Numbered from the stretch's first letter, positions 26,649 to 40,252 are shown. The stretch is DNA of 64,000 nt from an uncultured Phycisphaerales bacterium (GCA_963844715.1 CAWJPJ010000008.1:96001-160000), one strand, 5' to 3'. The notes: generated from the sequence alone by a model not told the origin. Made by a program: numbers and translations.

Positions 26649-27161
26649 ATGCCCCGATTCACCCGAACCTCCTCCGGCTACTACCGCCCCAAAAACTGCA
26701 CCATCGTCGGCGATTGCCTCATCGGCGAAGCCACCAGCGTCTGGTTCGGAGCCGTCATCCGCGGCGACGTCGCCCCCGTCCGCATCGGCCGCCGAGTCAG
26801 CGTCCAGGACAACGTCGTCATCCATTGCGATACCGGTATCCCCAATACCATCGAAGACGATGTCGTCATCGGACACGCCGCCGTCGTCCACGGCAAACAC
26901 GTCGGCTTCGGCTCCCTCATCGGCATGAGCGCCACCCTCCTCAGCCGCACCGTCGTCGGCCGTGAATGCCTCATCGGCGCCGGCGCCGTCCTCCCCCCCG
27001 GCCTAGTCGTCCCCGACCGCTCCCTCGTCGTCGGCGTCCCCGGCAAGATTGTCCGCCAGGTTACCGACGAGGAACTGAAATACATGCGGTGGCTAACCAG
27101 CACATATCTAGACCTCGCCCGGCGATACGAATCCGGCGAGTTCGATTCCGATCCCGATTAA
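26649..27161 (+). CDS. Gamma carbonic anhydrase family protein
   Basis: VWFGAVIRGD, QDNVVIH, IGHAAVVHG and hexapeptide repeats. Confidence 0.88.
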   Translation: MPRFTRTSSGYYRPKNCTIVGDCLIGEATSVWFGAVIRGDVAPVRIGRRVSVQDNVVIHCDTGIPNTIEDDVVIGHAAVVHGKHVGFGSLIGMSATLLSRTVVGRECLIGAGAVLPPGLVVPDRSLVVGVPGKIVRQVTDEELKYMRWLTSTYLDLARRYESGEFDSDPD

Positions 27162-27186
27162 ATCCCTGCGCGCTCTGCACTTATCC

Positions 27187-27264
27187 CCTCTCCCTGTACT
27201 CGGGGAGAGCACTCCCTGTCCCAATTTCCGCCAGTTTCGGCACGATGGGTGAGGGGCCGGTCCG
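27187..27264. repeat. Dispersed ~75-bp intergenic repeat, copy 2
   Basis: Aligns with 21791-21864. Confidence 0.8.
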
Positions 27265-27360
27265 GGAGGAGCCGTTCATTTACCGTCTCCAATATATAGG
27301 TAGACGAGGGTCCGTTGCGCGCCATTCCCCTATTCCTACCGTGGGAAATTAGGAAATTCG

Positions 27361-27390
27361 TTGAAAATCCCACGCCCGTTTTGGTATCTT
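27361..27390 (+). promoter_or_regulatory. Putative sigma70 promoter of the cold-shock gene
   Basis: TTGAAA-18nt-TATCTT with extended TG. Implies a ~210-nt 5' UTR, typical of csp mRNAs. Confidence 0.4.
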
Positions 27391-27608
27391 TTCGTAGCCG
27401 GTTAACTTCACCTCGCCGGCAACGGGGCAGTGTGTGCGGTCATGTCTGAGAGTCGTCCAATCTTCTCATCGGTTGTTGTTTCCAAGGGTGGATTGCCGCC
27501 ACGCCTTTCCTTGTCTATCGGTGATTCATTTCTCCATCTGTCATCGGCGCGGTCCCGGGCCTCACATCTCCCCCGGATCTCGCTCGATTTGGTTTAGGGA
27601 GGACGGTC

Positions 27609-27848
27609 ATGATCAACGGCACCGTCAAGTGGTTCGATTCCAAGAAGGGTTTCGGCTTTATCCTCAATCCCGAGGGAACCGACGTTTTCGTCCATTTCAG
27701 CAGTATCATGGGCGACGGCTTCCGGTCCCTTAAGGACGGGGAACAGGTCGAATTCGAGCAAGTCGCCGGAGCCAAAGGGCTTTCGGCGCATTCGGTTCGC
27801 CGCCTCGAGGCGCAGCACGCCGCGTCCCGATTAAATGTTGGCGTCTAA
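27609..27848 (+). CDS. Cold shock protein (CSD)
   Basis: GTVKWF, KGFGFI and DVFVHFS. GGAGG RBS. Confidence 0.95.
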
Positions 27849-27866
27849 ACCGCTACAGTATCGGGC

Positions 27867-28709
27867 GTGAATCCATTTGCATCCGGTTTGCTGATCGGCT
27901 TGGCCGTCGGCGCGGCTGGCGTTGCCGTCTTCGCAGCCGTCTCCCTACGCCGAATCCGCGCCTGGCGAATCCATCTAAAAGGAACGCTCCAGCGCATCCG
28001 CGCCGCCCGAAAAAAACTCCGCGCCCGCGCCGCCCAGGCCGAGCGCCTCGCCGAATTAGGCACCCTCACCGGCGGCCTCGCCCACGAAATCGAAAATCCC
28101 CTCTCCACCGTCCAGCTCAATCTCCAGCTTCTCCAGGAGGACATTGACCCTACCAATCCCGCCTATTCGCGCGTCGCCCACCGCCTGCAAACCGTAGAGC
28201 GAGAAGCCGGCCGCCTCCGCGACATCCTCGAGGATTTCCTCCGTTTCGCCGGCAAGATCGAACTCCGCCGCAAGGAAGTCGATTTGAATTCCATCCTCGA
28301 GCAGCTAGCCGATTTCTTCGCCCCCCAGACGCAACTGAACAAAGTCCAGCTCCGCTTCAAACCCAGCCCCCACCCCCTGTTCGTCTCGGTCGATGAGCGC
28401 CTAATCAAACAGGCAATTTTGAATCTGATGATCAACGCCCTACAAGCCATGACCGCTGGCGGCGAACTGATCCTGGCCGCCTCCACCCACTCCCCTTGGG
28501 CCGTCATAGACGTAATCGACACCGGCCCCGGCGTCCCCCGCGAGCAAGCCGAAAAAATCTTCCAAGCCTACTACTCCACAAAAAAAGGCGGCACCGGCCT
28601 CGGCCTCGCCATGACCAGAAGAATCATAGAAGAACACGGCGGCCAAATCGGCGTCACCAGCGAACCCAACAAGGGATCAGATTTCTTCATAAAATTACCC
28701 CTAAAATGA
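27867..28709 (+). CDS. Sensor histidine kinase (HisKA + HATPase)
   Basis: LAHEIENPL, NLMINALQAM, DTGPG and GTGLGL. Confidence 0.92.
   Translation: MNPFASGLLIGLAVGAAGVAVFAAVSLRRIRAWRIHLKGTLQRIRAARKKLRARAAQAERLAELGTLTGGLAHEIENPLSTVQLNLQLLQEDIDPTNPAYSRVAHRLQTVEREAGRLRDILEDFLRFAGKIELRRKEVDLNSILEQLADFFAPQTQLNKVQLRFKPSPHPLFVSVDERLIKQAILNLMINALQAMTAGGELILAASTHSPWAVIDVIDTGPGVPREQAEKIFQAYYSTKKGGTGLGLAMTRRIIEEHGGQIGVTSEPNKGSDFFIKLPLK
28589..28709 (+). repeat. 121-bp direct repeat, copy 1 (3' end of the kinase gene)
   Basis: Aligns without gaps to 29417-29537, 15 mismatches counted by hand. Confidence 0.92.
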
Positions 28710-28786
28710 TCCGTCCGGCCCTAAAACAATCCAACGATCCCCCCCCCAAAAAAAATTTGGCCATTTCCCCGCCCCCCGATATCCTA

Positions 28787-28858
28787 TGAAAATCTCAAAT
28801 ATGAAATCTCAAATATGAAAATCTGAAATTTGAAATCTGAAATTTGAAATTTCCAATC
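28787..28858 (+). repeat. Tandem heptamer array T(G/C)AAAT(C/T/A), about 10 units
   Basis: tgaaaatc tcaaata tgaaatc tcaaata tgaaaatc tgaaatt tgaaatc tgaaatt tgaaatt tccaatc. Confidence 0.9.
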
Positions 28859-28870
28859 CGAAAGGCCCCC

Positions 28871-29401
28871 ATGACCTACCAGCGCTTCGAAGACGTCCCC
28901 GTATGGCAGGCCGGCCTAGAACTAGCCGAAAAAATCTTCACGCTGACAACGGATCTACTCTTCGTAGGCCAAGGCGACCTCGCCAATCAACTTCAGCGCG
29001 CCGCTCTCTCCATTCCCAACAATATCGCCGAGGGATTCGAATGCGGATCGACCTCTCAGTTGATTGCATTCCTCTATTACGCCCGCGGCTCCGCTGGAGA
29101 AGTGCGATCCATCTTCTGCCTGCTGGAACGCATGCCCAGGTTCGCCAATCTCAAATCTCAAATCTCAGATCTAAAATCCGCCGCCGAATCCTGTTCGCGC
29201 CAATTGCGTGCCTGGGCCGACCACCTCCAAAACACCCAAATCAAGGGCCCGCGCCATCTCAACGACGTTTCCCGCGCCCGCTACGACCAATCCCGCCGTT
29301 CCGACGCCTTTCGCCAAAAACTACAAGACCTCCGCGCCGGCGTGGCCAGACCGAGTAACCAGATGTCCATGCCAGACCGGAAAGAATCAGAAGACTCCTA
29401 A
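28871..29401 (+). CDS. Four-helix-bundle protein (23S rRNA IVP / TIGR02436-like, structurally related to DGR Avd)
   Basis: RFEDVPVWQ, QLQRAALSIPNNIAEGFE and FLYYARGSAGEVRS. Confidence 0.9.
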   Translation: MTYQRFEDVPVWQAGLELAEKIFTLTTDLLFVGQGDLANQLQRAALSIPNNIAEGFECGSTSQLIAFLYYARGSAGEVRSIFCLLERMPRFANLKSQISDLKSAAESCSRQLRAWADHLQNTQIKGPRHLNDVSRARYDQSRRSDAFRQKLQDLRAGVARPSNQMSMPDRKESEDS

Positions 29402-29416
29402 ATCCCGCCAAAACGC

Positions 29417-29537
29417 CGGCACCGGCCTCGGTCTGGCCATGACCCTAAGAATCACAGAAGAACACGGCGGCCAAATCGGCGTCACCAGCGAACCCAGCAA
29501 AGGATCGGATTTCTTCATCAAATTGCCCATGCTTTGA
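29417..29537 (+). repeat. 121-bp direct repeat, copy 2 (orphan duplicate of the kinase 3' end)
   Basis: Encodes GTGLGLAMTLRITEEHGGQIGVTSEPSKGSDFFIKLPML-stop with no 5' part of the gene. Confidence 0.92.
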
Positions 29538-29603
29538 AAGCGTGAAGACGGTTAGCCGCCAGCCCGCCCGCGGGTAGACTCCGAACGCGACCAAAGAGTT
29601 AAC

Positions 29604-29681
29604 CCGCGGCTTTCACGGATGGCACGGATGAAATCCCAAAATGACCTTGTCTTCATCCGCGTTAATCCGTGAAATCCGCGG
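29604..29681. repeat. Imperfect palindrome of C(A/G)CGGAT units
   Basis: ccgcggctttcacggatggcacggatgaa ... ttcatccgcgttaatccgtgaaatccgcgg. Confidence 0.75.
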
Positions 29682-29791
29682 TCAAAAATCCGTATTTAAT
29701 TTGTTACGATTCGACAAGATTCGAACCGTGCGGAAAATGCGACAGCAAAAATTGGTGACAGCGTCTCACCTTTACTAGACGAGGCCGTACT

Positions 29792-30274
29792 ATGACTACT
29801 CCCAACGAAGTCTTCCACCGTGCCCTATCCAAACTCCTCCAAGAAATCTTCAACGGCCCGCCCACCCAGGAAGCCTATATCCTAAACCCCGGCGATCCCG
29901 GCCTCCTCGGCCAGCTTGAATCGATCGACGCTGCCAAAGCCTCCTCTCGCCCCATGCCCGGCAAGACCACCATCGCCGCCCATGCCGATCACATTCACTT
30001 CGGCCTTTCCCTCCTCAACCGCTGGGCCGCCGGCGAACCCAACCCCTGGGCCGACGCCGACTGGAACGCCAGTTGGCAACGCACCATCGTGACCGAGGAT
30101 CAGTGGCGAACCCTTCGCAACAATCTCCGCCGCGAGGCAGAGTCATGGCGAAAGGCAGTCGCCGCCCGTTCCGATTGGGACGACCTCGCCGCCGCCGGCG
30201 CCCTCTCCAGCCTCGCCCACACCGCCTACCACCTCGGCTCCATCCGCCAAATTCTCGCCGCGATCAACAAATGA
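29792..30274 (+). CDS. DinB/YfiT-like protein
   Basis: TIAAHADHI and AHTAYHLGSIRQI His motifs. Confidence 0.7.
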   Translation: MTTPNEVFHRALSKLLQEIFNGPPTQEAYILNPGDPGLLGQLESIDAAKASSRPMPGKTTIAAHADHIHFGLSLLNRWAAGEPNPWADADWNASWQRTIVTEDQWRTLRNNLRREAESWRKAVAARSDWDDLAAAGALSSLAHTAYHLGSIRQILAAINK

Positions 30275-30290
30275 AACGGAGGCAAAGCAC

Positions 30291-30716
30291 ATGGCCCAAT
30301 GGAGACGCGCTGCTATCGAACATTTGCCCGAACTGCGCCAGAAAATTGCCGCGGCCGACAGCATTATGGCGTTATGGATTGAGATTCACGGCGCATTCGA
30401 GAAGGCCTACCGCGAACCCCGCAATGAGGACCTCATAGCGCGCATCTATGCCTTCGCTCGATGGTGCTGGCACGCCCCTCGGAATGAAGATCCCGGCCGC
30501 GATCCATCCACAGCCGCGACCGTCGCGTTTCTTGAGCACATTCCCGGAATCCCCGCCGCCCGCGAAGACATGCCGCGATGGTTTACGTTCGATGAGATCG
30601 CCGCCGCTAAAAGCATCTTCGTCTACTCGTTGGGGGAGATCGCGTATAAGGAATTGCTCGCCCACATGCAGAGAAACAAGCACCAGCATTCAAAGCACCC
30701 CAGACTCCTCCCTTAG
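30291..30716 (+). CDS. Hypothetical protein
   Basis: 141-aa ORF with GGAGG RBS. Contains IYAFARWC and VAFLEHI. Confidence 0.65.
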   Translation: MAQWRRAAIEHLPELRQKIAAADSIMALWIEIHGAFEKAYREPRNEDLIARIYAFARWCWHAPRNEDPGRDPSTAATVAFLEHIPGIPAAREDMPRWFTFDEIAAAKSIFVYSLGEIAYKELLAHMQRNKHQHSKHPRLLP

Positions 30717-31329
30717 CCCGCGCCCGTGCGACGTGCCGCCGCTTACTTACACCCGCAACCGACTCGCAGGTGCTGCATTTTCCGCCTCCGGACGGTTTGA
30801 GGGGAAGGAAAGAGGGCCTCTGCACCCGCCGCCGCAGGCGGCAACTCCCAACCCTCCCCTTGCAAACGGATCACTCGAACCGCAGCAGGCCAGCCAGCCG
30901 TCCTCGCATCGGCAACCCGCTCTCGAATTCGAGCCGGTTGACCCGATCGGAACGAACGCTATGACCGACAAAAAAAATAACAAATCACAAAAAATGCATA
31001 TTTCGCCACCGCCCGCGACCTACCCGTCAAATCCCGCGCCCAAATATAATTACAAAAAATCAGCCCACACAAAAATTCAAAAAATGACCTTGCATGAATT
31101 TCAATTTAATTTCCGATTTTCAGTCCCTTTTTGCCAAAATCCTGCTCCACCCTCCGAAGCCTGCGCAATCTGGGCAATCCACACAATGTATGTTCAATAT
31201 TCATCAACCCCCGCAACCCCGTTACAGCAAAAGACTTCCCCCAAAAAACCCCCCAATATCGGTTCGAACCGAAAGCCCTAGGAAAAATAATTACCCCACC
31301 CTTTTTCCGAATTCGATTTATTTTCCCCC

Positions 31330-31446
31330 GCCCTGAGCCCTGTCGAAGGGCCCGCCCTTGTTCCCAATCTTAATCCTAATCCTCCCCCCGAAGCCCAAAT
31401 CAAGCACCGATTAAGATTATGATTACGATTAAGATTACGAGCAGGA
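31330..31446. repeat. REP-like motif plus hexamer-unit palindrome
   Basis: gccctgagccctgtcgaagggc (inverted homolog at 44754-44777), then AATC(T/C)T x3 facing GATTA(A/T/C) x5. Confidence 0.7.
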
Positions 31447-31456
31447 AGAAGGGAAA

Positions 31457-32119
31457 ATGGATTTAGCCGCAACGATCGATCACACCCTCCTCAAACCCGA
31501 GGCAACCGAGGCCGACATCCGCAAACTCGCTGCCGAGCAAATCGAATTCAAATTCGCCACCGCCTGCGTGAACGGAACCTGGGTCAAACTCGCCGCCGAC
31601 TTAGGAGCCAAAGTCTGCGCAGTAGTCGGCTTTCCCCTCGGCGCCGCAAAATCCTCAATCAAAGCCGCCGAAGCCGTCGCCGCGATCGAAGACGGCGCGT
31701 CCGAAATCGATATGGTCGCGCCCCTCGGCCTTTTGCTCGACGCCAAAGACCCCCTCGTTCAAGACGACATCGCCCAAGTCGTCCGCGCCGTCAAAACCGT
31801 GCGCCGGGACGCGATCGTAAAAGTCATCCTCGAAACCGCCGCTCTCTCCGAACATCAAACCGCCGCCGCCTGCCGCGCCGCCAAAGCCGCCGGCGCGGAT
31901 TTCGTGAAGACTTCCACAGGCTTTCATCCCAAAGGCGGCGCCACAATCCAAGCCGTCCGCTGGCTCGCGAAATACGCCGCCGGAATGGGCGTCAAAGCCT
32001 CCGGCGGAATCAAGGACCGCGCCGCCGCCGAGGCCATGATCGCCGCCGGCGCCACCCGCATCGGCACATCCAGCGGCGTGGCCATCATCCGCGGGGGCGG
32101 TTCGAGCAGTTCGTATTAA
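31457..32119 (+). CDS. deoC: Deoxyribose-phosphate aldolase
   Basis: IDHTLLKP, VVGFPLG, EIDMV, FVKTSTGF, VKASGGI and RIGTS. Confidence 0.95.
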   Translation: MDLAATIDHTLLKPEATEADIRKLAAEQIEFKFATACVNGTWVKLAADLGAKVCAVVGFPLGAAKSSIKAAEAVAAIEDGASEIDMVAPLGLLLDAKDPLVQDDIAQVVRAVKTVRRDAIVKVILETAALSEHQTAAACRAAKAAGADFVKTSTGFHPKGGATIQAVRWLAKYAAGMGVKASGGIKDRAAAEAMIAAGATRIGTSSGVAIIRGGGSSSSY

Positions 32120-33003
32120 CTGGCGCGGGCGATCAGATTTTCTAAAACGGTCTCAAGCGGAACGACGCCTTTGAGGGTTTTGGCCTCTTCCGATTCGAAG
32201 CAAATCCACCCTTCATTGAACCCGTCGAGCATGGCCATTCGCGGCTCGCCGTTGGTGGATCCCTGCGAGGAAAAAATCCCCGCCCATTTTTCGCGAGGGA
32301 CGATTTGGGCGCGAACGGCGCGATCCAGCAATATGGAGAAGGCCGCCGCGACATCCGCGGGGCTATAGCGCCGCGGGCCTTCAAGTTCGACCACTTTGCG
32401 GCCGGTCCACTCATGCTGGAGCATTTCGGCTGCGACGCGGCCGATGTCGGCGGTGGCGACCATCGGGAAAAGTTTGTCCAGCGGCTTCAGAAAGCTGTCG
32501 AGGATGCCTGTCTTTTTCGCCAACTCGACATCCCAGGCGAAGTTCTCCATGAACCACGCCGCGCGCAGAAAAGCGATGGGGATCGGCAGATTCCCCAGAG
32601 TCTGCTCCACCATCGTCAATTGGGTCAGCAGGTTGGTTCGCGTGGCCTGCGCGCGAACCGTCGAGAGGCAAACGATTTTCGCGGGCCTGGCGCTGGCCAG
32701 CGCCGAGTTGAGGGCCGCGATGATGCCTTTCGCTTCGGGGAAACCCGGGGACGGAGCGAAAACGGGTGGGAGAAGCACAAAGACCCCGTCCACGCCGGAA
32801 AACGCCGCCATCAGCGCTTCGGCGTCGGACATCTCCGCGGCCGCGATCTGGCATCCCTGCTCGCCCCACTCCCTCGCTTTGTCCGGGTTGCGAACCACAG
32901 CGCGTACGGATTTTCCAGCGACAAGAAGCGTTCGCGCGACCACGCCCCCAACCTGGCCCGTTATTCCGGTCACGGCAAACACTTGATCGTCGCGGCGCGG
33001 CAT
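32116..33003 (-). CDS. NmrA-like NAD(P)-binding protein
   Basis: VTGITGQVG, LRAAWFMEN and MVATADIG. Confidence 0.85.
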   Translation of the reverse strand: MPRRDDQVFAVTGITGQVGGVVARTLLVAGKSVRAVVRNPDKAREWGEQGCQIAAAEMSDAEALMAAFSGVDGVFVLLPPVFAPSPGFPEAKGIIAALNSALASARPAKIVCLSTVRAQATRTNLLTQLTMVEQTLGNLPIPIAFLRAAWFMENFAWDVELAKKTGILDSFLKPLDKLFPMVATADIGRVAAEMLQHEWTGRKVVELEGPRRYSPADVAAAFSILLDRAVRAQIVPREKWAGIFSSQGSTNGEPRMAMLDGFNEGWICFESEEAKTLKGVVPLETVLENLIARAS

Positions 33004-33082
33004 CGCGGCTCCTTTCGCATCCAGATTTGCCCAGCGCTGTGGATTATGGCAACGAAAATATTATGGAGTACCATCCCTTCCA

Positions 33083-34072
33083 ATGATACGGGGAAAAGCA
33101 CTTTGGCCGGCCGTGATCGCCTGCCTTGTCCTGACCTGCACCGCGGCCCATGCCCAGAAAATGGCCGCCAATACCGAGCCCTCAACCCAGCCCGGCGGCC
33201 CGCAAAAAACCTACGTCGGCATCTACATCAACGACGTTTACGAACTGGATCTCAAGCAATCCACCTACGTCGTCGACTTCTACATCTGGTTCCGCTGGAA
33301 GGGGGATATCGACCCCACCGAGTTCGAATTCATGAACGGTGAACTCGATCTCAAGGAACACCCCTATCGGCAGGCCGACAACGGAGTCAATTACGTTTCC
33401 TACCATTGCCGCGGCACGTTTCACATCGTCTTTGATTTCCGCAGATACCCGCTCGATTCCCATCAGCTAATCCTCGAGTTGGAAGACGGCGTGCACGACG
33501 TCAACGAACTTTACTACGTCGTCGATAGCGAGCACATGCAAGGCCTCCGGCCGGTCGTCCTCTCCGGCTGGAACTGCGGCGATCCCGACTTCAATGTCGC
33601 CGACCATCTCTATAAGACCAATTTCGGCGAGCCCACCCAGCGCGCATCCAAAACCGACACCTATTCGCGTTTCACCTGCGCCATCCACATCTCCCGCTCC
33701 GGCGACTCCATCTATATCAAAACCTTCCTCGGCCTGTTCATCTCCGTCGCCATCGCGTTTTTGTCCTTCCTCCTCAGGCCCAACGACACCGACCCGCGTT
33801 TCGCCGTCGGCGTCGCCGCGATTTTCGGAGCCGTCAGCTCCGAGATCGTGACCTCGGGCAATCTGCCGGATATGCCCTACCTGACCATGGGGGACAAAAT
33901 CCACCTCTTCAGCCTCTTCATGATCTTCCTATCGCTTCTGCAATCATGCCTGCTGCTGAAACTTTACCGGGTGGAGAAACACTCCGTCGCGTTTCGCATC
34001 AATCGGCTATCGCTCTTCGCGTTCCCGATCTTCTACGCGATCGTCGTCTCCGTGTTGTCGTATTTTGGATGA
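33083..34072 (+). CDS. Prokaryotic pentameric ligand-gated ion channel (GLIC/ELIC-like)
   Basis: Signal peptide, beta-rich extracellular domain, Pro-loop FRRYPLD, LPDMPYLTMGD M2-M3 loop and four C-terminal TM helices. Confidence 0.8.
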   Translation: MIRGKALWPAVIACLVLTCTAAHAQKMAANTEPSTQPGGPQKTYVGIYINDVYELDLKQSTYVVDFYIWFRWKGDIDPTEFEFMNGELDLKEHPYRQADNGVNYVSYHCRGTFHIVFDFRRYPLDSHQLILELEDGVHDVNELYYVVDSEHMQGLRPVVLSGWNCGDPDFNVADHLYKTNFGEPTQRASKTDTYSRFTCAIHISRSGDSIYIKTFLGLFISVAIAFLSFLLRPNDTDPRFAVGVAAIFGAVSSEIVTSGNLPDMPYLTMGDKIHLFSLFMIFLSLLQSCLLLKLYRVEKHSVAFRINRLSLFAFPIFYAIVVSVLSYFG

Positions 34073-34086
34073 CGCGGATTCAATGC

Positions 34087-34210
34087 AACCGCAGAGACGC
34101 GGAGGCCGCGGAGATAGACGCGGAGAAGAATGGAAAAGATCAATTCGAGATAAAATTCAAAATCATTTCTTGCATTTTCATCTGTGTTGATCTGTGCCCC
34201 ATCTGTGGCT
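34087..34210. repeat. Two short-unit repeat arms between convergent genes
   Basis: CGC(A/G)GAG x4 on the left and ATCTGTG x3 on the right. Confidence 0.65.
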
Positions 34211-34243
34211 AAAGGGCATTTGGATTTCCCATCCTCGACGCGC

Positions 34244-34939
34244 TTATCGCAGCACCTTGTATCGGAACCAGTTCACGCCGTTGGGAAGCTTCTTCTGCCA
34301 GATCAATCGCAATCCCGCGGCGGCTTTGGTTTGCCGGGGATCGTCGACATCGAAAAAACTCGAAACGCCCACGCCGCCGTCGACGATGGGGACTACAACC
34401 TGGCTGATTTCGTCAATGAGCCCCGCGCCGAGCATCGATCCGTTGAATTTCCCGCCCCCCTGGCACATCAGTTTTTTCAGATTGAAACCCCGGCGGAGTT
34501 TGGTCATCGCCAGCGGAAGATCGATTTCCGATTTGCCGCAGAAAAGATAAGACACGCCGGCATGCCGCAGCCGGGCCAGATGGACATCGCTTGCGCGCTG
34601 GGTGATGAGCAGAACGACGTGGTCGCCCCCGACTTCGGGTTTTTGGAACTCGAGGACGCCTTTGGCATCCGCGCCGATGGCGAGCGTCTTGGCATTGGGT
34701 TTAACGATATGGTCGCGCCGCGGGGCCGGCCCGTCAGCCGGCAGGCGTTTTTTCCCGTGATACGAGAATTCCTTCATGGTGGTCGTGCCCACCACCCAGG
34801 CGCCGATTTTGAAACTCGCCGCGGTCGTTTCGAAAAGCTTGGCGGACCCGCGAACGCCGGGAATATCCGGCCAGCGATGCCCGATGATTTTCCCGTCAAT
34901 GGTCGTGCACATGTGGCAAATGATATAAGGGCGCGGCAT
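34244..34939 (-). CDS. RibD C-terminal / dihydrofolate reductase-like protein
   Basis: RPYIICHM.TTIDGKI, QGGGKFNGSML.AGLIDEIS and P.VDG. Confidence 0.85.
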   Translation of the reverse strand: MPRPYIICHMCTTIDGKIIGHRWPDIPGVRGSAKLFETTAASFKIGAWVVGTTTMKEFSYHGKKRLPADGPAPRRDHIVKPNAKTLAIGADAKGVLEFQKPEVGGDHVVLLITQRASDVHLARLRHAGVSYLFCGKSEIDLPLAMTKLRRGFNLKKLMCQGGGKFNGSMLGAGLIDEISQVVVPIVDGGVGVSSFFDVDDPRQTKAAAGLRLIWQKKLPNGVNWFRYKVLR

Positions 34940-35028
34940 GGCCGATTAACCTCCTTCGATTGGCTTGTCTCTCCTTCCGAGTTTAGCAGGGGATCGTCCC
35001 GCGAAGAATGGGGCAAGAGGGCCGGAAT

Positions 35029-37119
35029 TCAGGCGTGTTCTTCAACCCGTCCCGCGATAACGGCAATGGTCGCGAGCAATTCCGACGGCTCGACCGGCTT
35101 GGCGACATGGGCGATATATCCCGCGCGAAGGGCGCGGGTGCGATCCTCCGATCGCGCAAAGGCCGTCAGCGCGATAGCGGGGATTCGCGCGCACGCCCCG
35201 GTGCGGATTTTCCGCACTTTTCTGAGGAATTCGTACCCGTCGATGCCCGGCATGCCGATGTCGCTGACCAGCATGTCCGGCGTGTCGTGCTCGAGCATTT
35301 GCAGCGCCTGTGTCGCGGATTCAGATGTGAGAACCTGCGCCCCCGATTCGACCAGCAGCCGCCGGATCAGTTCGCGGGCGTCCGATTCGTCGTCGACCAC
35401 GAGAACCTTCAGGGACGAAAGATCGGAGCGTTGGATCGCGACGGACATGCCCGCCGAATCGTCGCATTGGGGATTCATTGTCACGGGCAGGATCGGCAGA
35501 CGAACCACGAAAACCGCGCCCTTTCCCGGGCCGTCGCTGTTAGCTTCGATCGTACCGCCATGCAATTCGACGAGTTGTTTGACGATCGCCAAACCCAGTC
35601 CAAGCCCGCCGTGCTTTCGATTTGCCGAGGAGTCCGCCTGGCTGAATCGCGCAAAAAGATTGGGCAGAAATTCCGGGACGATGCCCTGGCCAGTGTCGGA
35701 GATCGTGAGTTCAACGTGCGAGCCGACGCGCTGGAGGATCACCCGCACCCGTCCGCCCCGCGGCGTGAATTTTACGGCGTTGCTCAGCAGGTTCCAGACG
35801 ATCTGCTGCAGTCGAGCCGGATCGCCCGAGATCAGCCCGGCAACGGGATCGAGATGTTTTTCAATGCGGATCTGCTTGGCGTCCGCCGAGGACTGCACCG
35901 TTTCGATCGCTTCGTTGACGGCGGGCAACGGGTCGACCCGCTGAATCTCCAGCCGCAATTTGCCGGAAATAATGCGGCTCATATCGAGCAGATCGTCGAT
36001 CAGTTGTTTTTGCAGTCGGGCGTTCCGCTCGATGACCAGCCCGGCGTCCTTCATGTCTCCCGGTGACATGTGTCCCGCGGTGAGCAGCCGGGCCCATCCC
36101 ATGACGGCGTTCAGCGGCGTGCGCAATTCATGGGAGAGGATCGCCAGGAACTCGTCCTTCATGCGATTGACGCGCTGCGCCTGCTCGCGGGCGTGCCGCT
36201 CGGCTTCCAGAAGCCGCTCCTGCTCCTGCTCCAGACGTTTGCGGTCGGAAATATCGTGGGCAATCTTGGAAGCGCCGATGACTTTGCCCGAAGCATCGCG
36301 CATCGGGGAAACCGTCACGGAGATGTCGATCAACCGCCCGTCCTTAGCGCGCCGCTGCGTGTCAAAATGATCGATCCGTTCCCCGCGGCGAAGGCGCGAG
36401 ATGATCTGCACCTCCTCATCGTGCCGGTCGGACGGAACGATCAGAAGAATCGACCGCCCGATCGCCTCATCCGCGGTGTAGCCGAAGAGCCGCTCGGCCG
36501 ACCCGTTCCAGGACGTGATGATCCCGTCGAGAGTCTTGCTGATGATCGCGTCGTCGGAACTTTCGATGATCGCGCCAAGCCTCGCCTGGACGATCTCGGC
36601 CGCCTTCTGCACCTCGTCCGACTGGTGCCGCTCCGTGACGTCCACCAGCATGTTCACGGCGCCGATGATCCGCCCGTTCGCGTACAGCGGAGACGGAAAC
36701 GGCATCACATTCCGGCGGACCCCGTCGGGGCGCTCGACGATAATCTCCACATCGCGCACCGCGCGCCCTTCCTTCAATGCGATAGCCATGGGGCACTCGT
36801 CCAGCGGCATCGGCGAGCCGTCGAGACGATAGATGCGGAACGACCCGCACCACATGTCCGCGCCAATCTCCGGCTTGCGGCCCCACATTTGCGCCGCGGC
36901 GTCGTTGAAAAGACAAATGCGCCCCGACGCATCACAAATATAAATGGCGAAAGGCAGTTCCTGAATGAGCTGGCGATAAACATCGCTCCGCAATAGGAGT
37001 TGCGATTGTGAATCGGAGTTGGGGGAAAACTCACCAATACTACTGGTGACGACAGGCTCAACCGGTCCGACCGCGTCTGCCGACGGAATGCACCGGGGGT
37101 TATCCAACTGCTGCGCCAT
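35029..37119 (-). CDS. Hybrid PAS-PAS histidine kinase / receiver
   Basis: PAS domains, SHELRTPL, NLLSNAVKF, GLGLGL and receiver SDIGMP. Confidence 0.92.
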   Translation of the reverse strand: MAQQLDNPRCIPSADAVGPVEPVVTSSIGEFSPNSDSQSQLLLRSDVYRQLIQELPFAIYICDASGRICLFNDAAAQMWGRKPEIGADMWCGSFRIYRLDGSPMPLDECPMAIALKEGRAVRDVEIIVERPDGVRRNVMPFPSPLYANGRIIGAVNMLVDVTERHQSDEVQKAAEIVQARLGAIIESSDDAIISKTLDGIITSWNGSAERLFGYTADEAIGRSILLIVPSDRHDEEVQIISRLRRGERIDHFDTQRRAKDGRLIDISVTVSPMRDASGKVIGASKIAHDISDRKRLEQEQERLLEAERHAREQAQRVNRMKDEFLAILSHELRTPLNAVMGWARLLTAGHMSPGDMKDAGLVIERNARLQKQLIDDLLDMSRIISGKLRLEIQRVDPLPAVNEAIETVQSSADAKQIRIEKHLDPVAGLISGDPARLQQIVWNLLSNAVKFTPRGGRVRVILQRVGSHVELTISDTGQGIVPEFLPNLFARFSQADSSANRKHGGLGLGLAIVKQLVELHGGTIEANSDGPGKGAVFVVRLPILPVTMNPQCDDSAGMSVAIQRSDLSSLKVLVVDDESDARELIRRLLVESGAQVLTSESATQALQMLEHDTPDMLVSDIGMPGIDGYEFLRKVRKIRTGACARIPAIALTAFARSEDRTRALRAGYIAHVAKPVEPSELLATIAVIAGRVEEHA

Positions 37120-37313
37120 CTTGATTCCTGCTTGCCCCGTGCAACATCGCCGCAACGACCATCGTAAGCAGCCATCCTACGTCTTTGTGGTGATTCCGCC
37201 AATGTTCAAAATTCGACTTTTGCCACGGTCCGTTATTTATGCAAAGAGTTATCAATAAAAAACTTATGAAGGTGATAGGACGGGTCTCGACGGATTGTTA
37301 ATATCGTTCAGAA

Positions 37314-37727
37314 ATGGACATCCGGCGCTTTGAGATTTCTGATGAGGCGGACGTGATTGCCCTCTGGCGGGAGTGCGATCTGATCCGGCCTTGGAATGAT
37401 CCGCATAAAGAAATCACGCGAAAGATGGCGTCTCAGCCCGACTGGTTTCTGGTTGGAACGCTCGATGGGAAGATCGTCGCCAGCGTGATGGCCGGATATG
37501 ACGGGCATCGGGGATGGCTCAACTATGTCGCGGTGGCGCGGAAATACCGCCGGCGCGGTTTGGGCGGGTTGATCATCGCGCATGCCGAGCAACTTTTGCA
37601 CGCCGCGGGGTGCCCGAAAATCAATTTGCAGGTTCGTACTGCGAATCAGGACGTGATCCGCTTCTACGAGAAGCTGGGGTATGCGGCTGATGATGTCACG
37701 AGCATGGGGAAGCGATTCAGCGATTGA
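37314..37727 (+). CDS. GNAT acetyltransferase (YpeA-like)
   Basis: RPWNDP, GYDGHRGW, GCPKINLQVR and FYEKLGY. Confidence 0.85.
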   Translation: MDIRRFEISDEADVIALWRECDLIRPWNDPHKEITRKMASQPDWFLVGTLDGKIVASVMAGYDGHRGWLNYVAVARKYRRRGLGGLIIAHAEQLLHAAGCPKINLQVRTANQDVIRFYEKLGYAADDVTSMGKRFSD

Positions 37728-37916
37728 TGCTCGTCTCCGCCGGAATGTTTCGATCAACATGTCTAAACGGGATCAGCGCACGACAAAAAAAATTAATTCG
37801 TCGCAACTTGGACACGTTCGAAATTGTGTACTCAAAGGAAGGAACGTAATCGCGGCGGCAGTCGAATCGCGACCCGCGCCGCACGCGGACGGGCAATATT
37901 CTAAGGAGGTTTCGTC

Positions 37917-38756
37917 ATGAAAAGAGCGGCAATTATTACGGCGGCAGTTATTTCGATCGGCGCACTCAATCTGGAAAACGCGCGGGCGTCCGACAATTCG
38001 CCGGCGACGCAGCCATCTCATCAGATGGTCAGCGCCGGAGTCGCCGCCGTGAAAACCGACCCGGGCGGGGCGTCGATCACGGATGTTCGGATACGCAGCG
38101 TGATCGCCAGCGCCACCGATGCGGCCATGAATCCCAAAGGCATGCCCGACCTGGTCTCCACGTTCCGCGACGCGCAGCGACAAAGCATCGAGAAATCGAA
38201 GACCTATTCCGAGGGCTTCGGCAGCGATCTGAAAATGCATATCGAGGCGATCTCCAAGGACTGGAAGAAAAAATATGGCGACGAGTTCTCGATTTCGACC
38301 GCGACGAAAATCTTCAGCCCGAGTTTCGCGGCGATTCAGACCGAATCCCCCGCCTCGAACAACGGGCATCGCGAATCCGCCCTGGTGACCCTTCGAGGTG
38401 AGACCCATCTCGGAGGCATGCAGGTGCCCCTGATTTGCGAGCAGGGCAGCGACTGGAGGATCGATGCTCCCGCGGCTCTGGACGCCGTGACGCTGCGAGC
38501 CAATTTGCTGGAACGCCTGACGAGTGTGCAGCACAACTTTGCGAACTGGCCCAAGAGTGAAACCGACGCCTATCGGCTGGTTGCTCACGAAGTGATGGGA
38601 GCCGTGCTGAATCGGACGATGCATGTGCAGGCTTCGGCCGCAGTGCCGTCGGAAACCACGGCTATCAACTCGTCGGCTCAGCAGACGAGCGCAACCGTGA
38701 AACCGGTTTCGGAAACGACCACGACGCACCACTGGTATCAATTCTGGAATTGGTGA
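37917..38756 (+). CDS. Secreted hypothetical protein
   Basis: AAGGAGG RBS; signal peptide followed by PATQP. Confidence 0.7.
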   Translation: MKRAAIITAAVISIGALNLENARASDNSPATQPSHQMVSAGVAAVKTDPGGASITDVRIRSVIASATDAAMNPKGMPDLVSTFRDAQRQSIEKSKTYSEGFGSDLKMHIEAISKDWKKKYGDEFSISTATKIFSPSFAAIQTESPASNNGHRESALVTLRGETHLGGMQVPLICEQGSDWRIDAPAALDAVTLRANLLERLTSVQHNFANWPKSETDAYRLVAHEVMGAVLNRTMHVQASAAVPSETTAINSSAQQTSATVKPVSETTTTHHWYQFWNW

Positions 38757-38870: not shown

Positions 38871-40252
38871 ATGTCCGAGCAGAGCAATTTCAAAGCCGAA
38901 GTGCTGATCGTCGATGACGAAAAAGAGCACGCCCAGGTCATGAGCGATGCGCTCACCCGGCAGGGGCATCGTTGCGATCTGGCCTATAGCCTCAGCGAAG
39001 CGAAGGAGAAGCTGAATAAAAAAAGCTACGACATCATCGTCACCGACCTGGTGATGGACGGCAAGCGCGATGGGCTGGAAGTGCTGAAGCTGTCGAAGGA
39101 TCTGACCCCTCCCCCGCAGGTGATTCTGGTTTCCGCCCATGGGGATATTCCGATCGCCGTCGAGGCCATGAACGAGGGGGCCTACGGGTTCATCGAGAAG
39201 CCATTGGATTTGAGCCATTTTCGGGCCCAGGTGAATCGCGCCGCCGAGCGCGTGTCGCTTCAGAGGCAGAATCAGGTCCTGCGCGACCAGTTGTCGGATC
39301 AATCCAGCTTCGAGGGGATCGTCGGAAAAAGCGCCGCCATGCAAAAACTGCTGGCGACCGCGCGCCAGGTGGCCGCCAGCGACATCCCCGTCCTCATCAT
39401 GGGAGAAAGCGGCACCGGCAAGGAACTCATTGCGCGGGCCATTCACTTCAACAGCAAGCGCCGGCGGAACCGCCTGGTGACGCTCAACTGCGCCGGGCTC
39501 AGCGAGAGCATCCTGGAAGACGAATTGTTCGGGCATGTGCGGGGGGCCTTCACTGGCGCCAAGGCGAGCGCGAGGGGCGCTTCGAGCACGCCGACGGCGG
39601 GACGCTCTTCATGGACGAGATCGGCGACATGCCGTCCCCCATGCAGGCCAAGCTCCTGCGTGTGCTGGAAAACGGAGAAGTCGTCCGGCTGGGCAGCAAC
39701 GAGCCGATCAAAGTGGATGTGCGGCTTATCAGCGCGACAAACCGAAAACTCGAGGACATGGTCGCCGACAAGCAGTTCCGGGAGGATTTATTCTTCCGGA
39801 TTAAAGGCGTGACGCTGGTTCTCCCGCCGCTGCGGGAGAGGCGCGAGGACATCCCGCTCTTGATCCATTTCTTTTTGCGGGAATTTTCAGAGAAGTACAA
39901 TAAGGAACTGGAAGGCGTGTCGCCCGCCGCCCAGCAACTGCTGGTTTCATATAGCTGGCCGGGAAACGTGCGGCAGCTTCGCACGGCGATCGAAAACATG
40001 GTGGTTCTCTCCCCCGGAAAGATCCTCGGCGCCGAAGGCCTGCCCGCCGAGATTCGCCCCCCGGGCCTTCCTAGCCCCGGCGAGGCGACGGCTTCCACCG
40101 GAAACCTGGTCGGCATCAGCCTCGAACAGGCGGAGAAGGAATTGATCCGCAATACCCTCAAAATGGTCGAAGGGAACCGCGAGCAGGCGGCGAAAATTCT
40201 GGGGATCGGGGAGCGCACCCTCTATCGCAAAATACGGGAATACGGACTGTGA
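38871..40252 (+). CDS. Sigma-54-dependent response regulator (NtrC family), frameshifted
   Basis: Receiver domain, [26 protein letters not shown] and Fis HTH. Frameshift near 39570. Confidence 0.92.

Follow-up and report, generated by a model that had tools for sequence, protein, structure and literature searches.

The last 121 bp of a sensor histidine kinase gene in an uncultured Phycisphaerales bacterium recur downstream of the gene, on the far side of a small four-helix-bundle (FHB) gene, and this segment is probably the scar of a one-sided recombinational insertion from a relative, in which the FHB gene was a passenger. The window analyzed is a 64,000-nucleotide stretch of one strand (GCA_963844715.1, CAWJPJ010000008.1:96001-160000), and coordinates without a prefix refer to it. 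Three observations carry this reading: the layout itself, the coding-like divergence of the two copies of the gene end, and the same layout at 11 other loci of this genome. They suggest that the duplication belongs to the insertion route and that the FHB cassette is cargo.

A kinase gene end is duplicated around an FHB gene

The anchor gene (27867..28709, plus strand) encodes a sensor histidine kinase of 280 aa with HisKA and HATPase_c domains, as assessed by Pfam/NCBIfam profiles. Alignment of its live 3' end (28589..28709, plus strand) with the segment at 29417..29537 (plus strand) reproduced the duplication reported in the original prediction: the copies align over 121 bp without gaps, at an offset of 828, with 15 mismatches in 6 synonymous and 5 non-synonymous codons, and with the TGA in register. 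Similarity is absent beyond the stop codon. A BLAST search with the repeat returned a 119-bp match (89.9%, E = 2e-39) that is the sole close copy in the 4.55-Mb genome. In an ungapped scan of the 10 kb downstream of the kinase, the second copy scored 89 and the runner-up 11.5, and there were neither older kinase orphans in this 10-kb stack nor an orphan of the regulator 5' end. The second copy is an orphan, with no start and no upstream kinase sequence. As shown by residue tallies over 80 homologs, the in-gene end, putatively the incoming allele, retains a conserved Gly and a conserved Arg, whereas the orphan, putatively the displaced resident allele, has an Arg-to-Leu change whose base is present at that site in 0 of the 80. 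By its sequence, the orphan has decayed somewhat since, with at least this one change unseen in homologs.

That only a heptamer array and an FHB gene lie between the copies was borne out, with two additions, a G-poor spacer and a heptamer run inside the gene. The spacer, recognized by its sequence and composition, leads from the kinase stop to the array (28710..28784, plus strand). It is followed by the heptamer array (28785..28856, plus strand) and the FHB gene (28871..29401, plus strand), and then by a joint without homology that leads from the FHB stop codon to the orphan (29402..29416) and has no right heptamer arm; the orphan starts 9-15 bases past the FHB stop. Profile searches likewise agreed with the original prediction that no integrase, transposase, or reverse transcriptase (RT) lies between the copies, and the called genes from the kinase to its response regulator gave no match to transposase or recombinase families.

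The FHB protein, of 176 aa, belongs to the long subfamily of PF05635/TIGR02436 (E = 3e-21 and 76 bits against a cut-off of 33.8 for PF05635; E = 6e-21 and 74.8 against 24 for TIGR02436), the homologs of which have a median length of 169.5 aa. It matches PDB entry 2GSC by sequence (E = 6e-9), no Avd chain among the structures at E≤1, and no catalytic family among the Pfam/NCBIfam profiles. The array is of the AATCTCA/AATTTGA type, the usual left arm of such FHB genes, and an upstream array is present at 57 of 74 FHB homolog loci. The run inside the coding sequence (29147..29178, plus strand), which reads NLKSQISDLK, is shared by 66 of 74 homologs. We rejected the missing right arm as a sign of truncation, since 20 of 57 loci that have a left arm lack a right one, and also a long stem in which the internal heptamer run would pair with the upstream array, since the fold of 28770-29200 is not significant (z = -1.35).

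Heptamer repeats upstream of the ORF are known for 23S rRNA intervening sequences that bear S23p/IVP genes of PF05635/TIGR02436 (PMC4990558), so that protein family and heptamers are common to both. The locus here differs in lying outside rRNA, in encoding the long subfamily of 176 aa, and in having no terminal inverted arms that close a long stem. An intervening sequence was also rejected on the window itself, with no Rfam match in 27000-32000 and no significant closing stem (the z value above). Elsewhere in this genome, an FHB gene with inverted heptamer arms in an apparent 23S rRNA (G000:C4:133101-133425) looks by eye like a classic ORF-bearing intervening sequence.

In a comparison limited to contigs of four soil runs (of five listed, none recorded as RNA), at a depth of 3-5 and possibly from the very source of the window, the junction between FHB gene and orphan is unchanged in two short-read contigs (29137-29835 and 29204-29540, 0 differences each). 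Because these contigs cross the joint without differences, the right junction is not an assembly artifact. None of the listed contigs bridges both kinase-end copies. The same four contig sets contained no circle, excision, or empty-site joints, at a depth too thin to speak on either, and listed no variant letters within the repeats. At position 28092, contigs of two runs have A instead of G, which gives the usual HEIKNP motif. The G is likely a long-read base error, and frameshifts in the response regulator (38871-40252), in ComEC, and in one FHB gene may be similar errors.

Divergence of the copies and the probable direction of replacement

Across 10 pairs of gene-end copies (eight from this genome plus the FHB homolog loci L060 and L097, with gapped or later-found loci omitted), we counted 78 synonymous and 66 non-synonymous differences, for a pooled pN/pS of 0.28; the value at this locus is 0.31. 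The eight own-genome pairs have 38 amino acid differences, against 60-64 expected when a local duplication followed by neutral decay of the orphan was simulated; in each of four settings, none of 2000 runs reached a value this low. This locus taken by itself is borderline, with 5 amino acid differences against 8.3-9.0 expected (p = 0.02-0.06). In view of the synonymous excess, the copies therefore diverged mostly while coding, as alleles of different lineages would. Such a pattern fits copies that would have come from separate donor and recipient lineages.

Only the geometry speaks to which copy was resident, and it points to the orphan. The original prediction had used codons to mark the foreign copy, and part of that observation stands: the in-gene end does have an excess of rare codons (7 of 40, vs 1-3 per 40 upstream in the kinase), matched in 9 of 1785 comparable genes. 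One proposed codon pair did not hold, the CTG of the orphan being opposite CTC and not CTA, and the orphan, said to have typical codons, also contains CTA, AGA, and ACA. The argument is weak, and we rejected it, because the closest relative, which lacks the cassette, has a similar jump in A-ending codons at its kinase end (15 of 40 vs 2-6) and because substitutions are symmetric between copies across the 10 pairs.

The kinase locus in relatives

Homologs of the kinase were collected at 85 loci (29 from genomes and 56 from metagenomes); the 3' end could be read at 80 of them, with 38-2997 bases beyond it. One of these loci (L012) and one control locus used below (L278) come from an unpublished genome (G004), which supplied no positive example. 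A sigma-54 response regulator lies <700 bp behind the kinase at 27 of the 56 homolog loci whose flank reaches 900 bases or more. In this genome, the distance is ∼10 kb, with accessory genes in between: a stack of ∼9 kb (29792..38756; DinB-like, DeoC, NmrA, RibD_C, a hybrid kinase, GNAT, and others) parts the kinase from its cognate regulator (38871..40252, plus strand), which is frameshifted in the assembly and matches the regulator behind the kinase in a same-genus genome at 75-83% by tblastn. The closest relative (L127) is syntenic at ∼77% DNA identity and has an antitoxin-like small gene and a PIN gene in the gap between kinase and regulator. Because the gap holds differing cargo in the two genomes, the kinase end is a cargo-collecting place. 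In the relative, this cargo stands behind the kinase with no orphan end, showing that cargo also arrives or persists without a scar.

At none of the 80 loci with a readable 3' end is there an FHB gene or a second intact kinase behind the kinase; an intact paralog in relatives, which would have made the segment a decayed tandem duplication, was thus sought and not found. A duplicated kinase end occurs at a single homolog locus (L033), where it adjoins an N gap; we take it to be a probable assembly artifact and did not count it. Alignment of the locus across relatives had been proposed as a way to see which copy an empty allele matches. No empty allele turned up among 41 relative genomes, 3 genomes of the genus, and 80 metagenome loci, the best of which, at ∼75% amino acid identity, are too distant to assign the copies, and the closest relative is equally near both (101 vs 100 of 123).

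The same layout at ordinary gene ends elsewhere in the genome

Genes were called with a simple hexamer model, and each was searched for non-coding local copies; from the BLAST and scan lists we chose 12 loci by eye, including this one, leaving out hits to repeat proteins, dispersed repeats, and paralogs. Each consists of a gene 3' end, 0.1-2 kb of other DNA, and an orphan of 37-162 bp at 76-93% identity, the similarity of which ends at the stop codon or no more than a few bases from it or, for 5S rRNA, at the terminator. The anchors are the kinase, an ABC-2 permease, a phosphorylase, an epoxide hydrolase, an H+-PPase, MTHFR, pantoate ligase, a small unnamed gene, an unnamed 190-aa gene, and three that we take, from their sequences, to be a mutS-like gene (with two orphans), an astB-like gene, and 5S rRNA. 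The cargo is equally diverse: FHB, ORF6N, PEP-CTERM genes, a P450, an IS630-like DDE gene with its neighbor, DUF433/DUF5615, Phd/PIN, a TPR protein, MNT/HEPN, an antitoxin-like gene, and octamer or other repeat arrays, with FHB as cargo at this locus only. Since unrelated cargo is found at 12 anchors, the insertion is therefore bound neither to a particular target nor to a particular cargo. Two of the 12 scars are 2-5 kb from a tyrosine-integrase match and one contains a DDE transposase gene; some of the 12 may be of other origin.

Clean 3' cases predominate by eye in this genome, and raw counts that include paralogs are equal (54 3' vs 54 5' at a score of 24). Given these equal counts and the 5' cases in other genomes, we drew no conclusion about an RNA intermediate.

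The mutS-like gene (G000:C7:1155290-1156600) is trailed by two orphans that repeat its final ∼50 bp. An CTTCACAC octamer array precedes each of them, similar in type to the arrays around the FHB gene at C7:480318, and no FHB gene lies in between. The 5S rRNA 3' end and its terminator are doubled around a small toxin-antitoxin-like insert (G000:C4:135337-136080), and the same 5S end and terminator are duplicated in a same-genus genome (G002; L270:981-1860) around other cargo, a DUF433 pair.

Frequency of gene-end duplications at FHB and control loci

The long-FHB set comprises 80 homolog loci, of which 68 have at least 800 bases on both sides; four of these 68 are bracketed by a duplicated terminus of a neighboring gene, at 3' ends (L060 and L097) or 5' ends (L052 and L056), with one locus with a duplicated FHB leader (L071) uncounted. 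None of 29 usable classic FHB loci from the same family (30 in all) and none of the six other FHB loci of this genome is bracketed, whereas the control loci, also from the same family, gave 1 of 16 usable loci for ORF6N and 3 of 26 for DUF433. Gene-end duplications thus occur at 4 of 103 FHB and 4 of 42 control loci (p = 0.23), in a comparison that favors the FHB set, with flanks of 5 kb for its 68 long-FHB loci vs 1.5 kb. Scars in other genomes likewise involve, at 3' and 5' ends, DUF433 pairs (L268, L270, and L271), ORF6N (L240), and a small gene (L063). Periodic arrays are found at 2 of the 12 scars and in 9.7% of gene-downstream kilobases, and an association of repeat arrays with scars was rejected as not significant (p = 0.33).

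These counts bear on the central idea of the original prediction, that the FHB gene and its heptamers are a mobile unit that made the duplication, and they do not uphold it, the cargo being unrelated at the 11 other loci and the bracketing no commoner than in controls. The search proposed in the prediction does yield other bracketed TIGR02436-like genes. What is supported is the entry of DNA at a gene end, which left a displaced copy of that end, with no recombinase nearby; the FHB unit as the agent is not supported.

At L052:4387-5193 and L056:4840-6230, the FHB gene lies between doubled gene starts in apparent CRISPR-Cas operons (cas1- and cas4-like by eye). At L240:83-2385, an ORF6N gene lies amid three copies of a gene start (∼240-305 bp, 91-92%), a serial scar.

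Alternative explanations

A duplicated target gene end that flanks an insert is a feature of integrative islands, and the segment could be the remnant of one that entered the kinase end by means of an integrase, restored the gene, and later lost all but the FHB gene. The geometry equals that of icd/e14/icdC, in which the incoming 3' copy of e14 restores icd and a pseudogene fragment, icdC, is left on the far side (PMC13626634). Restoration by an incoming 3' copy and a 3' pseudogene fragment on the far side are thus shared with that system, and the genome has 38 tyrosine-integrase (PF00589) matches, of which two lie 2-5 kb from other scars. Differences from e14/icd (PMC13626634) are the missing integrase, the lack of a fixed target, and the small inserts (∼0.1-2 kb at 12 genes). 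With twelve anchors, unrelated cargo, no integrase remnant between the copies, the nearest integrase match on this contig ∼107 kb off, and no such orphan at the 80 kinase loci save the one beside an N gap, we regard a decayed island as unlikely. Had the kinase, or just its end, been duplicated in tandem on the spot, with later deletion and decay and a separate landing of the FHB cassette between the copies, no donor would be required; the R>L change of the orphan, unseen in homologs, and the borderline result of the single-locus decay test agree with this. We find it quite unlikely, given a pooled synonymous excess far past the decay expectation, similarity that stops at the stop codon and does not extend into the flanks, and a second kinase at no homolog locus.

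The FHB cassette with its heptamer arms might instead be an active minimal mobile element that duplicates the terminus of a neighboring gene on insertion. At L060, as here, the orphan directly follows the FHB stop and the left arm starts from the host stop; at L052, heptamer runs abut the duplicated gene start; and at the mutS-like locus, octamer arrays of the FHB-flanking type precede both orphans. Against this stand the frequencies of bracketing (0/29 classic, 0/6 own-genome, and 4/68 long-FHB loci vs 4/42 controls), arrays not significantly commoner at scars than in the background, a protein with no catalytic family match, and a missing right arm that is common among FHB loci, which together make such an element very unlikely. 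We hold it no less improbable that the cassette is an enzyme-free selfish element whose protein or arms fix the non-homologous joint at the cassette end and which spreads by replacing gene ends; its footprint would be joints at FHB stops (here and at L060) and arm-type arrays that abut the two mutS-like orphans. Joints near the cargo stop occur with non-FHB cargo too, and we therefore read them as selection for intact cargo together with trimming. Last, the layout invites comparison with a DGR devoid of its RT, with the orphan as template repeat (TR), the in-gene end as variable repeat (VR), the FHB protein as Avd, and an RT acting in trans. DGRs have the order VR-Avd-TR, which the layout here matches, and their VR differs from the TR at TR adenines. 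We rejected this reading, which is extremely unlikely, because there is no RT match (PF00078, 0 matches in an 85%-complete genome) and because the adenine pattern is opposite to that of TR-to-VR transfer: despite 33 adenines in the would-be TR, only 2 of the 15 mismatches are at its adenines, and the would-be VR, the coding copy, has A at 9 of the 15. The target would moreover be the conserved ATPase end of the kinase, and no variant letters are listed in the repeats of the four low-depth runs. At the level of the family, PF05635 has been reported to be homologous to Avd, and DGRs have an Avd-related protein between near-identical repeats, one of them at a gene 3' end (PMC10053308). They differ from this locus, with its missing RT, reversed adenine pattern, and no variation listed in contigs at depth 3-5, and the parallel drawn in the original prediction falls.

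A probable one-sided recombinational insertion and its possible routes

For the preferred reading, a one-sided recombinational insertion with the FHB gene as passenger, we infer a donor, a direction, and a route as follows. The donor would be a related strain in which the FHB gene already lay downstream of the kinase, and it would supply a fragment with the kinase end and the cargo. This incoming fragment would pair with the resident kinase to form one homologous joint, its other end would be joined without homology inside the kinase, and the resident end would be stranded behind the cargo. The locus has such a one-sided layout, with a homologous anchor on one side, a non-homologous joint on the other, and no recombinase gene. 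Because the kinase remains intact, the event can persist. Two routes could lead to it, a single crossover with a trimmed, re-circularized fragment or homology-facilitated illegitimate recombination (HFIR) with the illegitimate joint inside the anchor gene; they give the same product and are indistinguishable here. HFIR is reportedly the subject of transformation studies by Prudhomme (2002), de Vries (2002), and Meier (2003).

An experimental parallel exists in Escherichia coli. When a donor with one-sided homology was used, 56 of 60 selected clones gave a PCR product diagnostic of partial duplication of the lacZ end; the duplicates measured 109-950 bp in 14 sequenced clones and were ascribed to a single crossover with a trimmed, re-circularized donor (PMC3240628). 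The remaining 4 of the 60 were true HFIR clones, with deletions, and the events were rare (6e-9) and occurred via conjugation (PMC3240628). The integrase-free, one-sided entry, the size of the duplicate, and the layout are the same as here. The E. coli events (PMC3240628) were engineered and selected and involved identical homology, whereas the copies here are 12% apart, like alleles of separate lineages, and its true HFIR clones had deletions, whereas there is a duplication here. The authors of a study on Vibrio T6SS and Rhs loci likewise propose HFIR as the origin of the orphan arrays there (PMC5361080). In the C-terminal displacement at Rhs/CDI/T6SS effector-immunity loci, a module that enters by way of an anchor in a conserved gene likewise drives the resident 3' part downstream as an orphan, and serial events stack (PMC5361080). 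There, the anchor is the toxin gene and the swap alters the toxin (PMC5361080), whereas the scars described here are anchored in ordinary genes (a kinase, metabolic enzymes, 5S rRNA), leave the protein nearly unchanged, and have an unrelated downstream gene as cargo. ComEC, DprA, ComM, and Ku family genes are present in this genome, and competence genes are widespread (in 10-11 of 14 control genomes); to judge from sequence, these genes would permit, but do not show, uptake and end joining. Weighing against recombination are the 37-50 bp copies, which are short for a crossover unless later trimmed, and the fact that neither a donor nor an empty allele was found in the relatives searched.

The locus itself is ordinary, a kinase trailed by a passenger gene, and the pattern matters more. 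If our reading is true, small genes (such as toxin-antitoxin, FHB, and PEP-CTERM) would spread via the end of any conserved neighbor, which serves as a one-sided handle, without integrase or transposase, and every event would leave a countable scar in which part of the displaced allele survives. With twelve such scars in 4.55 Mb, a process that laboratory measurements show to be very rare would seem to be an everyday way for some environmental bacteria to gain genes, and this would account for the patchiness of "non-mobile" accessory genes. The protein family, the adjoining heptamers, one-sided recombination, and orphan displacement are already known. In the literature searched, with subscription journals thinly covered, we found no genome-wide account of such scars at ordinary gene ends and nothing relevant on FHB genes with gene-end duplications, the one related match being a paper on the Coxiella intervening sequence.

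Repeats and base composition around the locus

The plus strand is strongly G-poor over 28000-31600, with a GC skew down to -0.49, and the rise of A-ending codons at the kinase end is seen in L127 as well. Three families of dispersed hairpin repeats lie nearby, of the CACGGAT (29604-29681), GATTAA (31359-31443), and CCCTCTCCC (27180-27260) types, all with many copies or loose-end matches elsewhere; the CACGGAT-type repeat, with many matches in the genome, stands behind the orphan and outside the insert. Hairpin repeats also occur past the kinase in L032, L132, and L135. Directly past the kinase stop in L016, there is a TTGCAAT-type heptamer hairpin with no FHB gene before the response regulator. 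This amounts to a pair of arms without a gene at the corresponding site.
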